From the IMG/VR virus record IMGVR_UViG_3300025874_000005, positions 100,119 through 164,118 of that record: a DNA stretch of 64,000 bases, one strand, 5' to 3'. This DNA comes from a virus. The notes beneath the pieces are model-generated. The model saw only the letters and a program-made list of their open reading frames with translations. It was not told the origin of the DNA and ran no database searches. Below are positions 2,969 through 9,905 of this stretch, piece after piece. A program made the translations under genes and the position numbers. Position 1 is the stretch's first letter; each line of letters starts with the position of its first letter.

Positions 2969-5113
2969 ATGAACGAGCGTAAACTGTCAAAAGCAGAACT
3001 CAAAAAGAGGGAAGATATTATCATGAATATGAAAGGTAACAAACGTGACCTTGTTAAAAAATATGGTAAAGATGCTGAGGCAGTTATGTATGGACGTGCA
3101 ACTAATATGGCTAAAAAACAAACAAAAGAAATGAGAGATCCTAATTTAACAGAGTTGATTAAAGATGCATTAAAAAACCCATCAAAAGCAGATTTAAATA
3201 AGGATGGAAAGCTATCAGATTATGAAAAAACTAGGGGGGCTGCTATTGAAAAAAACATAAAAGAATTAGACTCATCAATTCCGTTGGGAAAAGATTTTAC
3301 TTATGATTATGAAGATATAGGTCAATTTTATTTAGAAGGTTTTGGTAGACCACACTCATTAAATAATAGTGAATTAGAAGCATTAGGTAAGCAAATTGTT
3401 GGTAGACTATATGGTGGTAACATTAGTAAAGCCTATGATGATTTAAAAAATAAAGGTAAAATGAATGAAGTAGAATTACCTACATCAATTATCCAGAAAT
3501 TTGCTAATGAAATTAAGGACCCCCAAGGATTTGCAAAAGCAATGCTTGGGATTTTTAATTCTATACAAGATAAAGAACAAAAAGATTATTCTAAAAATCA
3601 AAAATTTGGAAGAGTACTTAGTTATTTAAAAGATATAGCCGATAGTGAAGCTGAAGAAATAAATGAAGCACCAGGAACAACATTAGATTTATCTCAAGAT
3701 GATATGGATAAACTTCATCAAAGTGGTAAATTAGAACTTGATGGTCATAAACTTTTATATAAAGTAAAAGAAGATATTGATTTAGGTCATGAAGATAATG
3801 AACCTGGAATGCTTAAAGCAGAGCTTTACCATATTGGTAGTTATGCTATGGAATTATATAAAATGATGGATGATTTAGAAGGTATGGGAGAAATTGATTT
3901 CCCTGCTTGGTGGCAATCAAAAATCACAACAGCTAAAAATAATATATCAGGAGCTAAACATTATCTTGAATTTGAACTTAAAGAACCTAAAATTGATGCC
4001 GTAGTTGATGTAGCTACAGACGTAGTAGATGAAGAAATAGGCCAACTAGGCACAGATGGTGATACAGGATTTCAAGCGTCATTATACACACCAAACGAAT
4101 TAGGTGATGCATCAGTAGGAAGAGAATATGCATCAGGAGCATTTGAGGAAAGTAAAAAACCAATAGAAGAAGCAATGAATATGAATAAATGGCGCCGCGC
4201 CTACAACGGAAAAGCATTTGCTAAAAAAACAGTATATTTAACAGATTATAATAATAATAAAAAGAGATATACTATTTATTTTAAATATAAGGAAACACCA
4301 TCTAAAGATGTTGTATCACTTAAAGAATCTCATTATGGTAATCATGAAGGTAGTGGAATGGCATTTGCAATGTCTAATTTACAAAACAAACCAGTATATC
4401 AATTTACATCTGATGATAAATTTGAGTGGGACAATGAAGAAGAATTTGATGCTTGGGTAGCAGAAGGACCTAAAGGTTTAGAAAGTTTACTAAGCTTTTT
4501 CTTAGGTGGTAGAAATGTTGATGATGCTATTAAATCTTGGTTTGACACAGGTGTTACTGATAAAAGTAAATTAAAAATAGGACCTGCAGAATATTATCCA
4601 GATGCAGCCGTAAATGAATCTACTTCTAAACATAGTTCAATAGCAGAAAAATTAGCTAAAGAGTTAAAAGAAGGTTTACCTAAAGGATTTTGGGATAAAA
4701 AAATCGATGCTAAAGATGAAGACCAAGATGGTAAAATAGATGAAGACTTAAAAGGTCTAATGGCACAGGGAGAAAAAATAGCTGCATTTGCTAATAAGCA
4801 AAGTGGGTATGAAGGGGGTGTATCTTCACCTGTAAGAGGTGTTTTAGCAGCTATGGCAGCAGCGGGTGCACCTGATTTTGATGGTGATGATGAAATGGTA
4901 AGTTATTATACTAGAAAATTAACTAAAGCTATTGAAACTCAAAAAGGTAAAAAATATATGAGTGGTTTTTCTATTGATGAATCATACGATACTTTAGTTA
5001 ATAAAATTAAAAAACAAGGTAAATCTAGTAAGGCAGCTAAAGCAATTGCAGGTGCAGTAGCATCATATAAAGCAAAAGGCGGAGGTAAAGGCCCAACAGC
5101 AAAACAAAAATAA
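2969..5113 (+). CDS. Large modular charged protein, putative head-internal protein
   Basis: 714 aa; modules separated by IKE/MNE/INE/VKE/VNE/LKE/IDE; DLNKDGKLSDYE and DEDQDGKIDE DxDxDG-like loops; basic C-terminus. Confidence 0.55.
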   Translation: MNERKLSKAELKKREDIIMNMKGNKRDLVKKYGKDAEAVMYGRATNMAKKQTKEMRDPNLTELIKDALKNPSKADLNKDGKLSDYEKTRGAAIEKNIKELDSSIPLGKDFTYDYEDIGQFYLEGFGRPHSLNNSELEALGKQIVGRLYGGNISKAYDDLKNKGKMNEVELPTSIIQKFANEIKDPQGFAKAMLGIFNSIQDKEQKDYSKNQKFGRVLSYLKDIADSEAEEINEAPGTTLDLSQDDMDKLHQSGKLELDGHKLLYKVKEDIDLGHEDNEPGMLKAELYHIGSYAMELYKMMDDLEGMGEIDFPAWWQSKITTAKNNISGAKHYLEFELKEPKIDAVVDVATDVVDEEIGQLGTDGDTGFQASLYTPNELGDASVGREYASGAFEESKKPIEEAMNMNKWRRAYNGKAFAKKTVYLTDYNNNKKRYTIYFKYKETPSKDVVSLKESHYGNHEGSGMAFAMSNLQNKPVYQFTSDDKFEWDNEEEFDAWVAEGPKGLESLLSFFLGGRNVDDAIKSWFDTGVTDKSKLKIGPAEYYPDAAVNESTSKHSSIAEKLAKELKEGLPKGFWDKKIDAKDEDQDGKIDEDLKGLMAQGEKIAAFANKQSGYEGGVSSPVRGVLAAMAAAGAPDFDGDDEMVSYYTRKLTKAIETQKGKKYMSGFSIDESYDTLVNKIKKQGKSSKAAKAIAGAVASYKAKGGGKGPTAKQK

Positions 5114-6610: not shown

Positions 6611-7963
6611 ATGTGTAACTGCGGATGTAATACTTGTGATACTAATAAATCAACGTTAATGTTAAATGAAAATTTAGCACCGCGTGCTATATTGTCTGAG
6701 GGTTTAAAACACCATATAGACAACGATAAACCGCTTACTGAACATTTATACCGTGCGGGTTCACGTGCTTATTTTGATTTATTTGCAGAAGCAAGATCTT
6801 TATATAGTAGAGGCATTTTAAAATTTACTAATGAAGATGATTTAGCTTTACTTACAGAAACTAATTTAGGTCATTTTGGTATGTTTGAAGGTAAAAAAGT
6901 GCCTTTAGATTTTCCTATTGAATTAAATGAGCAAATGGACATATATGATGACATTGCAAATATGGAATTTGGAATGGATTATGACCAATTAGGTGATAAT
7001 GAAAAAGAATGGGTTCGTGATGAAATTGATAATATGGAAATGAATGAAGTTACCAGTTATAGTGGTTTTAATAGAAACCCAGAGGACCCAGATTCCGAAC
7101 CATTTCAACCAACAGGGTCAGTATCTGAATTTAGAGAAGATTTAAGAGCATTATTTGGTAAATTTAAGGGTGATTTAAAAAATCCTGAGTTTATAAAAGG
7201 AGTAGCTCAAATAATGGTTAATTGGAAATCACTTTTAAGAAGTCAATTAAATGAATCAGATTCTAAATATCCAAATTTTGATTTAAATAAAAATATAAAA
7301 TACAAAGATACATCTATTTCAAGTGGGATGTGGAGATACACAGGTCAAGAACAAGGTGGAGCAGGTGTTTATAGAAATTTAAATAATGGTCAAATATTAG
7401 CTTTTGATAGAAGTGATTTTGATATATTTAAAAATAATCTTAGCAGTCATTTTGATATAAATGAAGGAACATTTAATTCTCCTAACCATATTGCAATTTT
7501 TGATGGTCCTGATGGCATGGTAGATGTTTATAAGACACCAGAGGGTTATTATTTCCAAACTGATAATTATGATGGAGAAGCTTCTAATGCTAAAGAAGCA
7601 GCTAAATGGTTAAAAGATAATGGTTTTGTTAGATTACAAGCTGGTAGTTTAGATGAAGCTAAAAAGAAAAAAGCTAAGAAAAAAGATAATAGACCAATAG
7701 GAAAACCAATGCGTTCATCTTCAGGTGGAAAAGCTTACAAAGTATACGTTAAGGATCCTAAAACTAAAAAGATTAAAACCGTTAGATTTGGATCTGGTGG
7801 TTTAAGAGCAAAAATAAATGACTCTAAGGCCCGCGCAGCATTTGCAAAAAGACACAAATGTTCAACTAAAAAAGACAGAACTAAAGCAGGTTATTGGAGT
7901 TGTAGATTACCTAGATATGCAAAATTACTCGGACTCAAATCAAGCTTTTCTGGATTCTGGTAA
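6611..7963 (+). CDS. Modular hypothetical protein: Cys-rich N-terminus, basic C-terminal domain (FAKRHKC...AGYWSC)
   Basis: 450 aa; starts MCNCGCNTC; repeated LNE/MNE/INE/LDE junctions. Confidence 0.6.
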   Translation: MCNCGCNTCDTNKSTLMLNENLAPRAILSEGLKHHIDNDKPLTEHLYRAGSRAYFDLFAEARSLYSRGILKFTNEDDLALLTETNLGHFGMFEGKKVPLDFPIELNEQMDIYDDIANMEFGMDYDQLGDNEKEWVRDEIDNMEMNEVTSYSGFNRNPEDPDSEPFQPTGSVSEFREDLRALFGKFKGDLKNPEFIKGVAQIMVNWKSLLRSQLNESDSKYPNFDLNKNIKYKDTSISSGMWRYTGQEQGGAGVYRNLNNGQILAFDRSDFDIFKNNLSSHFDINEGTFNSPNHIAIFDGPDGMVDVYKTPEGYYFQTDNYDGEASNAKEAAKWLKDNGFVRLQAGSLDEAKKKKAKKKDNRPIGKPMRSSSGGKAYKVYVKDPKTKKIKTVRFGSGGLRAKINDSKARAAFAKRHKCSTKKDRTKAGYWSCRLPRYAKLLGLKSSFSGFW

Positions 7964-8228
7964 ACCATATATTGACTTAGAAGTTACAGATAATTATATT
8001 CTAAGACAATTTAATGAATCAATTGATCCTATAGAATTACTTTGGCATCGTGATGATGAAGACAGAGTAGTTGAAATTATAGGAGAAACTGATTGGAGTT
8101 TACAACTTGATAATTCCCTTCCATCTTCCCTTCAGGAACGTATATTTATACCTCGACATCAGTGGCATAGAGTAATCAAAGGCACTGGAAGTTTAAAACT
8201 TAAAATATATAAAAATGAACAAATGTGA
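7917..8228 (+). CDS. Small cupin-like protein (start uncertain: 7818 or 7917)
   Basis: WHRD...IFIPRHQWHRVIKG cupin-type His motifs; the nearest ATG (7917) overlaps the upstream gene by 47 nt. Confidence 0.55.
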   Translation: MQNYSDSNQAFLDSGKPYIDLEVTDNYILRQFNESIDPIELLWHRDDEDRVVEIIGETDWSLQLDNSLPSSLQERIFIPRHQWHRVIKGTGSLKLKIYKNEQM

Positions 8229-8283
8229 TTGTCAAATATGTAAGTGCGGTACTTCATGTAGTTGTACTTGTTGTAATTGTTAA
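8215..8283 (+). CDS. Metallothionein-like micro-protein, 22 aa with 9 Cys (not in the ORF track)
   Basis: ATG 8215 to TAA 8283 translates as MNKCDCQICKCGTSCSCTCCNC; fills the gap between two genes; AAAA directly before the ATG. Confidence 0.65.
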   Translation: MNKCDCQICKCGTSCSCTCCNC

Positions 8284-8288
8284 ATAAA

Positions 8289-8564
8289 ATGGAAAATTTC
8301 GATTATAAAAAATATTTAGCTGAAGGTCGCTTATACGAAAACGTATTAGCTCAAAAACTTAGAGACGAAGCAAAACACCCAGACTCAAAAGTGGGTGCTG
8401 CTATATTTAACAAGTATGCTGAAAAAGTAGAAAAAGCTAAAAAAGAAGATTATGTAAAACTTATAAAAGCTATGGAAAGCGAATTAATATCTAAACACCC
8501 TGATACATTCAGTGGTGAAGATGACATTCCAGGAAGCTTTTTACGTGAGGACAAAATAAATTAA
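8289..8564 (+). CDS. Hypothetical protein with NFDxxKYLAEG leader (start moved from TTG 8277 to ATG 8289)
   Basis: MENFDYKKYLAEGRL matches the N-terminus of the next gene; A-rich context before ATG 8289. Confidence 0.65.
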   Translation: MENFDYKKYLAEGRLYENVLAQKLRDEAKHPDSKVGAAIFNKYAEKVEKAKKEDYVKLIKAMESELISKHPDTFSGEDDIPGSFLREDKIN

Positions 8565-8569
8565 AATAA

Positions 8570-9052
8570 ATGAATAACTTCGATTTAACAAAATATTTAG
8601 CTGAAGGTAAGCTACTAAATGAATTCGTAGGTAAAGCCTTAGAAGATAGAAATCAACCTCTTTATGATAAATTAGTAGCAGGATCTGGCAAATCAGATAC
8701 TATGGAAGGTGAAATGTTAAGAGCTATTAATAGAATTGTTTATCGTTATTATAATGATGGAGATGAATACCATACAGGATATGGTACTGAAACAGCAGGA
8801 CCAGCTCATTCATTTTTGGTTAATGCTAACACAGGTGTAAGATCAGCAATGAATATGATATTTAGAAATGGAACTAATTATGAAGAAACTATTGAGGATG
8901 CTTTAGAGCATATTTTATCTCATATTGAAGCTAAACAAGGTAAATACACCCCTAATACAGTAGGTGATATGTTTGATTATGAAGCTGAATTTGAAGACGA
9001 TACATATGAAGAAGAAGATTATGATGATTATGATGATGATTATGATTATTAA
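8570..9052 (+). CDS. Hypothetical protein with NFDxxKYLAEG leader and acidic D/Y tail
   Basis: MNNFDLTKYLAEGKL; GEMLRAINRIVYRYYNDGD core. Confidence 0.6.
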   Translation: MNNFDLTKYLAEGKLLNEFVGKALEDRNQPLYDKLVAGSGKSDTMEGEMLRAINRIVYRYYNDGDEYHTGYGTETAGPAHSFLVNANTGVRSAMNMIFRNGTNYEETIEDALEHILSHIEAKQGKYTPNTVGDMFDYEAEFEDDTYEEEDYDDYDDDYDY

Positions 9053-9872: not shown

Positions 9873-9905
9873 TGTGGCCTCCATTTGGAGGTCACATTTT
9901 TTTTT
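9873..9905 (+). terminator. Intrinsic terminator
   Basis: TGTGGCCTCC-ATTT-GGAGGTCACA hairpin followed by T9. Confidence 0.85.

Follow-up and report, generated by a model that had tools for sequence, protein, structure and literature searches.

A candidate metallothionein-like family of nine-cysteine micro-genes in phages and on chromosomes of marine Bacteroidota

Metallothioneins are recognized as a class by a high metal content with metal-thiolate clusters and, in sequence, by their low mass and high Cys content, by CxC, CC and CxxC motifs, and by the absence of aromatic residues and the rarity of His. The thiolates of CxC and CC pairs are avid ligands of Zn and Cu. Among the closest described cases are the beta-domain of vertebrate metallothioneins and the beta-E domain of wheat Ec-1, which belong to proteins of 60-80 residues. 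These domains have nine Cys close together, with CxC pairs and a CxC-x3-CxC core, as well as small polar linker residues (G, S, T, K, N, D) and no aromatics. The beta-E domain of Ec-1 forms a Zn3Cys9 cluster, which has been termed 'common in MT' (PMC10612145), and the nine Cys of the Pseudomonas metallothionein PflQ2 take part in Zn3Cys9His or Cd4Cys9His clusters (PMC7387436). Other small, cytosolic and Cys-rich metal binders of bacteria are SmtA/BmtA (PF02069) and mycobacterial MymT; together with the Pseudomonas proteins these have 50-80 residues, His ligands and a zinc-finger-like fold, and SmtA has a divergent SmtB repressor. The Cu(I) metallothioneins of Neurospora crassa and Agaricus bisporus are single-domain, leaderless proteins of about 25 residues with seven Cys, rich in CxC with G, S and N as linkers. 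To our knowledge, proteins of this type are the shortest gene-encoded metallothioneins described. In the literature we found no paper that connects metallothioneins with auxiliary genes of phages or with Bacteroidota.

Here we analyze a gene for a nine-Cys peptide located in the final 64 kb (hereafter the window) of a virus record from IMG/VR of 164,118 bp; the GC content of the whole genome is 31.9%. The large terminase of this phage shares 59% identity with TerL of Flavobacterium phage vB_FspM_immuto (genus Immutovirus, 160 kb), which is its nearest cultured relative, and T4-like terminases are more distant. The peptide gene forms part of a tightly packed string of co-directional genes, with those for TerL and the portal protein 6-8 kb further downstream. 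No nine-Cys peptide is encoded by vB_FspM_immuto, where the sole match to the Cys pattern with three mismatches is interrupted by a stop codon, and a blastn search of the region against GenBank phages gave no match.

The peptide has in common with the vertebrate beta-domain and Ec-1 beta-E the nine closely packed Cys, the CxC-x3-CxC core and the type of linker residues. It differs from them in being a free-standing product of 20-22 residues, and its Cys spacing, CxCxxCxCxxxCxCxCCxC, is peculiar to it. Compared with the Neurospora/Agaricus type, with which it shares the abundance of CxC and the G, S and N linkers, it is shorter (20-22 aa), denser in Cys (41-45%) and has nine Cys in a different spacing; the Neurospora/Agaricus proteins are eukaryotic and homology with them is not established. 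Like the bacterial proteins it is small, Cys-rich and presumably cytosolic, whereas it lacks their length and their His ligands, and its loci do not contain an adjacent metal sensor.

The micro-gene and its translation start

The features of the region are listed in Table 1. The first-pass annotation had pointed to a hidden ORF of 22 codons at 8215-8283 with all nine Cys codons in one frame, and its coordinates, translation and Cys frame all agree with what we find. The overlap of 14 nt with the upstream cupin gene and the adjoining ATG at 8289, which it had also reported, are both seen in the sequence; the overlap (ATGAACAAATGTGA) includes the upstream stop codon TGA at 8226-8228. The 22-aa product contains nine Cys, which are encoded by eight TGT codons and one TGC codon in a single frame.

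Table 1. Features around the nine-Cys micro-gene (positions in the window)
Feature	Position	Strand	Remarks
450-aa protein	6611..7963	+	N-terminal Cys4 motif; syntenic with the peptide in 37 viral loci
Small single-domain gene, predicted cupin fold	7917..8228	+	3' end shares 14 nt with the peptide gene
A-rich translation-initiation region without Shine-Dalgarno	8195..8214	+	A at -3, -6, -12, -13; sequence AAAACTTAAAATATATAAAA
22-codon nine-Cys micro-gene	8215..8283	+	ATG 8215, TAA 8281-8283; encodes MNKCDCQICKCGTSCSCTCCNC
91-aa downstream gene	8289..8564	+	5 nt past the peptide stop
Strong intrinsic-terminator-like hairpin with T-run	9873..9896	+	closes the co-directional gene string that holds the peptide gene
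Orphan FAD/NAD(P)-binding oxidoreductase, 491 aa	9939..11414	+	homologue downstream of the peptide in 38/112 viral contexts

When the window was searched with a pattern of nine TGY codons, allowing up to three mismatches, a single match was obtained, compared with none in 100 shuffled sequences in which the dinucleotide composition was preserved. Moreover, translation of the whole 164,118-bp genome in all six frames contained exactly one stop-free window of 19 codons with nine Cys. The single match, together with its uniqueness in the six frames, excludes a chance ORF. A tblastn search of phages with the 22-mer gave no match, probably owing to the low-complexity filter.

The region upstream of the start codon has the composition expected for the presumed host group. 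Bacteroidetes are a phylum without Shine-Dalgarno sequences, and in Flavobacterium johnsoniae ribosome profiling and reporter assays demonstrated that A residues at the positions concerned promote initiation (PMC6847099). Across 105 viral contexts of the peptide gene, A occupies position -3 in 90%, -6 in 76%, -12 in 89% and -13 in 87% of the cases. The claim that the micro-gene has the same A-rich start context as other genes of this phage holds as well: for 44 large genes in the window A is found at -3, -12 and -13 in 68-70%, against a background of 38%. By this comparison the micro-gene carries an initiation signature of the host (Bacteroidetes) type and, with the conservation described below, 8215-8283 is almost certainly a translated gene.

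Relatives in viruses and on Bacteroidota chromosomes

Relatives were first gathered independently of the peptide, by means of the neighboring upstream gene. This yielded 169 viral contigs, from which 80 loci were kept. In 12 of these 80 loci the same slot contains a 22-codon ORF in which all nine Cys are kept while other residues have changed (for example MNKCNCTKCNCGKSCDCPCCDC, MENCNCTVCECKKSCSCSCCGC and MINCNCTTCKCGVSCSCSCCDC). A scan for nine TGY codons that was run initially was dominated by (TGY)n repeats, and was replaced by a DNA pattern in which the Cys codons are separated by VNN linkers and followed by a stop codon. The latter pattern matched at least 118 viral contigs and 56 genome contigs, and 37 of the genome contigs carry genuine members of the family. 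The distinct peptides, 20-22 residues long, amount to 92 viral ones among the matches listed and 34 cellular ones, none of which is common to both sets. Their skeleton can be written as M-x(0-2)-CxCxxCxC-x(2,3)-CxCxCCxC-stop, and with three residues in the middle linker the core reads CxCxxCxCxxxCxCxCCxC, the stop coming right after the last Cys.

Three observations that are independent of the scan pattern indicate that this skeleton is maintained as protein-coding sequence. An ATG, which was not required by the scan patterns, is present at most three codons before the first Cys in 162 of the 174 matches listed. We also carried out two leave-out scans, in each of which only half of the Cys codons were fixed. 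The positions left free encoded Cys in 310/312 and 380/380 cases (690/692 in total), the two exceptions being changes of C to Y and of C to H. Across the family the Cys codons vary synonymously (897 TGT, 309 TGC); pN is 0 at these codons, and pN/pS is 0.73 at the remaining ones. Besides Cys, the conserved residues are G9 (83/134), S11 (112/134) and N or D at core positions 2 and 18. Thus, the prediction that the ORF would be conserved in frame in relatives, with synonymous changes, is borne out by nine retained Cys and varying TGT/TGC codons. To judge from these substitution patterns, the Cys skeleton is under strong purifying selection, and 8215-8283 belongs to a large, unannotated family of predicted leaderless nine-Cys peptides of 20-22 residues.

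Two longer relatives were observed. A phage form of 36 aa with 13 Cys (L209:798-905, minus strand) appears to have arisen by duplication of part of the module within the peptide, and an archaeal MAG contains a form of 33 aa that is extended at the N-terminus by a Lys-rich stretch (L332:3133-3231, minus strand).

A natural extended form of 41 residues gave no candidate when searched against a collection of 5.8 billion proteins, and we found no called or named copy there. This is consistent with gene callers never calling such ORFs. Standard gene callers and family libraries hence miss a family of well over a hundred variants, and because of this annotation-based studies of marine metal cycling and of virus-host relations are blind to it.

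The composition of the peptides agrees with that of metallothioneins. They consist of 20-22 residues, nine of which are Cys (41-45%), arranged in CxC, CC and CxxC motifs; F, W and Y are absent, a single His occurs in 134 distinct sequences, and the linker residues are N, S, K, D, T, G and E. Searches with MNKCDCQICKCGTSCSCTCCNC of Pfam-A (hmmscan, E<=1), NCBIfam (E<=10) and the PDB (phmmer, E<=10) gave nothing; PF00131 and the related metallothionein families of Pfam are covered by the first of these. There was also no profile match to SmtA/BmtA (PF02069), from which the peptide is set apart by the lack of His and by a length of 22 aa versus about 55 aa. A profile built from 61 members retrieved one PDB entry at E<=10, wheat Ec-1 (2KAK), with a non-significant E-value of 6.2 (10.7 bits). 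The term metallothionein-like used in the first-pass annotation therefore stands as far as Cys motifs and composition go, which fit the sequence-level definition, but the searches of Pfam, NCBIfam and the PDB revealed no metallothionein family with significant homology. As judged from sequence the likeness is one of kind, with descent not demonstrated, and the genes appear to constitute an undescribed family of metallothionein-like micro-genes.

All 37 genuine cellular matches are in MAGs or SAGs of Bacteroidota, mostly marine Flavobacteriaceae, Cryomorphaceae and unclassified marine 'Bacteroidetes', and also Marinoscillum/Cytophagales. These copies are chromosomal, on contigs of up to 1.1 Mb, and 15-22 of the 37 loci have one conserved neighborhood. 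It comprises genes for an AIR-synthase-like and a GlnA-like protein, a member of the Na/Ca-exchanger family, a tRNA, a helical protein of 119 aa, the peptide itself, a lipoprotein-like product, pirin, DUF6174 and MsrA. The gene for the conserved 119-aa protein, which is all-helical, is located 30 nt upstream of the peptide gene on the same strand (L309:3585-3941 and 13 orthologues) in marine Flavobacteriales; its AF2 model has a pLDDT of 86, yet no fold match in the PDB and no family were found for it. Further cellular neighbors encode a dienelactone hydrolase, GNAT, glyoxalase/VOC and PhoD proteins and a deaminase. In the cellular and viral neighborhoods examined there was no consistent metal-efflux gene, metal sensor, regulator or metal-resistance context, and linkage to MerC was not seen.

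The viral peptides differ from the cellular ones. Core position 9 is Gly in 71 of 89 viral forms versus 1 of 33 cellular forms, and MK predominates as the prefix in the former, MD in the latter. Since the two are distinguishable, the phage copies would represent an old separate lineage and not recent captures. The gene is not confined to phages, as copies are also carried by the chromosomes of marine Bacteroidota; rather than a phage invention, this looks like a gene family common to host and phage. Overall, then, the observation made in the first-pass annotation is confirmed and its interpretation is supported in part.

The cupin-fold neighbor and the putative role of the peptide

The longest reading of the ORF upstream of the micro-gene starts at 7818 and would overlap the end of the preceding 450-aa gene by 146 nt (7818-7963). 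The relatives begin at MQNYSDSN, encoded here from ATG 7917, or later; for this reason the real start is probably ATG 7917 or a later one, and the call of 136 aa is probably too long. A core of about 86 residues is highly conserved, with invariant H44, D46, E48, H81 and H84 (alignment A2). H44, D46 and E48, followed by H81 and H84, resemble the two cupin motifs in a non-canonical form, and neither Pfam profiles nor PHROGs matched the protein. In the AF2 model (pLDDT 72, moderate confidence) it adopts a double-stranded beta-helix, and the top matches obtained with Foldseek in the PDB were all small single-domain cupins (E ~1e-3, TM ~0.5), several of them metal-bound. The predicted fold is the same as that of the small metal cupins TM1459, DSY2733 (2OZJ) and MJ0764 (2B8M), from which the protein differs by having no sequence-profile match to Cupin families. 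The label 'cupin' given to it earlier is thus supported at the level of the predicted fold, for which the top Foldseek matches are all cupins.

A gene of this cupin family is located within 3 kb of the peptide gene in 36 of 112 non-redundant viral contexts. In 23 of the 112 it directly abuts or overlaps the peptide gene, with junctions ranging from a gap of 1 nt to an overlap of 14 nt and including four different overlap lengths. In a single lineage (L016/L205; P0001, nine member sequences) the two are fused in frame. Adjacency and fusion suggest a functional link between cupin and peptide, albeit weakly because related phages share synteny by descent.

We favor the view that the peptide is a minimal metallothionein, i.e. 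that it forms a metal-thiolate cluster which buffers or transfers metal, and give this a probability of about 0.6. As it has no signal or leader sequence it is expected to stay in the reducing cytoplasm. There, its nine closely spaced thiolates would bind soft metal ions, most economically in an M(II)3Cys9 cluster as in the beta-type domains of metallothioneins, or else in a Cu(I) cluster. In such a form the peptide could serve to buffer or store Zn, Cu or Cd during infection or to pass them on, possibly with the small metal-type cupin encoded just upstream, in translational overlap, as its partner. Action late in infection or packaging into the virion, both suggested by the first-pass annotation, would be speculative. 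Marine Flavobacteriia have the gene in their chromosomes, and in their phages it occurs as a small movable gene. Should the peptide bind metal, the lower size limit of gene-encoded metallothioneins would become 20-22 residues, Bacteroidota and bacteriophages would join the groups that have metallothioneins, and handling of metals or redox would be an auxiliary trait in phages of abundant, bloom-forming marine flavobacteria. A more far-reaching version is rather speculative: the peptide would be the smallest known gene-encoded metallothionein and the first in phages, would act as a dedicated metal donor or acceptor for the coupled cupin, and would make up with it a metal-handling module, common to phages of marine Flavobacteriia and their hosts, by which the phages redirect Zn, Cu or another metal during infection.

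Several other explanations were weighed against a minimal metallothionein. Phage micro-proteins often act by binding to host proteins, and the peptide might be a metal-knotted micro-protein that recognizes one particular protein (the cupin or one of the host), so that the metal would be structural only and the peptide an effector or regulator instead of a buffer. The conservation of residues other than Cys (G9, S11, and N or D at core positions 2 and 18), a hint of a specific fold or surface, would fit this, as would the tight coupling to the cupin in 23/112 contexts and the fusion lineage. We nevertheless consider it doubtful: the chromosomal copies in host lineages argue for cellular housekeeping and not for an anti-host weapon, many contexts of the peptide do not contain the cupin, and the linker residues vary freely (pN/pS 0.73). 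Metallothioneins are known too as radical scavengers (PMC7387436), and another possibility is that the peptide serves as a thiol-rich scavenger of ROS or redox agent, or as a reservoir of sulfur or cysteine, and forms no stable metal cluster. Scavenging would not need the exact, invariant spacing of the Cys residues nor the invariable C-terminal Cys. In addition, free CxC and CC thiolates in the cytoplasm would be expected to bind Zn or Cu avidly anyway. This explanation is therefore unlikely, even though MsrA and pirin are encoded within 1-4 kb in many cellular loci and the FAD-dependent oxidoreductase is syntenic in 38/112 viral contexts.

The same oxidoreductase, or the cupin, would be a tailoring enzyme if the peptide were a modified precursor or substrate of the RiPP type, or an exported disulfide-rich peptide. 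This would agree with the invariant C-terminal Cys, with the frequent proximity of the oxidoreductase, and with the presence in relatives of other Cys-containing micro-ORFs (with three and six Cys) in the slot behind the cupin gene. However, with the first Cys at residue 2-4 and the last one directly before the stop codon there is neither leader nor follower, and a signal peptide is lacking; transporters, proteases or known RiPP enzymes are not consistent neighbors, and the oxidoreductase, for which no PDB sequence match and no equivalog was found, matched no known tailoring family. Such a role is improbable. Finally, an ORF so short, in which 9 of 22 codons specify Cys, could be a regulatory leader that senses the supply of cysteine or Cys-tRNA, or it could be non-coding or due to chance; frame 2 likewise lacks stops in 124 of 134 sequences, as a by-product of their TGY-rich composition. 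With only 5 nt before the next ATG there is no room for an attenuator in front of the 91-aa gene, the genes downstream vary among contexts, and in the bacterial loci the nearest hairpin is distant, about 235 nt downstream of the peptide gene. The exact Cys spacing, the G and S positions and the stop that always follows the last Cys are likewise not accounted for, the chance expectation is 0, and an Rfam search gave no real match, so that the conservation is not explained by an RNA family. A leader, attenuator or chance ORF is largely refuted by this conservation pattern and is highly improbable.

Other genes near the micro-gene in phages

The surroundings of the peptide gene in phages are varied: it adjoins the cupin gene, the FAD oxidoreductase gene, or genes for a primase, an AAA_28 protein or a GIY-YIG homing endonuclease of the SegE type. 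In one group of phage contigs (L254:3861-4346 and about 11 similar loci) the SegE-type endonuclease gene precedes that of the peptide by about 1.5-2 kb, which is consistent with the micro-gene residing in mobile, variable regions. In this respect the phage copy behaves like a small movable gene. Of the 491-aa oxidoreductase, the Rossmann N-terminus alone matches a family, Pyr_redox_2; in locus L031 its gene starts 185 nt past that of the peptide.

In relatives without the nine-Cys gene the slot behind the cupin gene is occupied by other small ORFs. Seven loci (L003, L005, L008, L010, L013, L015 and L018, at ~3398-3475 in most) contain a micro-ORF for a hydrophobic peptide of 24 aa with three Cys, MKKLICNIIYYITFKQVCLGYCIK, and in L007 a 28-aa micro-ORF with six Cys, MKKWICELVCKLSFGKICLQWCDIKCCR, is present at 3398-3484. 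Tiny genes seem to be exchanged for one another in this slot.

The first-pass annotation had also remarked that the nearby 450-aa protein begins with a Cys cluster. This holds: the protein starts with MCNCGCNTCDT (6611-6650), and the motif MCxCGCNTC[DE]T is kept in about 14 relatives. The Cys4 motif may constitute a small zinc knuckle. Of this protein the C-terminal part alone matches a family (phrog_7595).

Downstream of the micro-gene, the 91-aa gene and the gene that follows it have unrelated bodies and near-identical N-termini (MENFDYKKYLAEGRL and MNNFDLTKYLAEGKL); the two gene starts (8289-8340 and 8570-8620) share 83% DNA identity over 48 nt.
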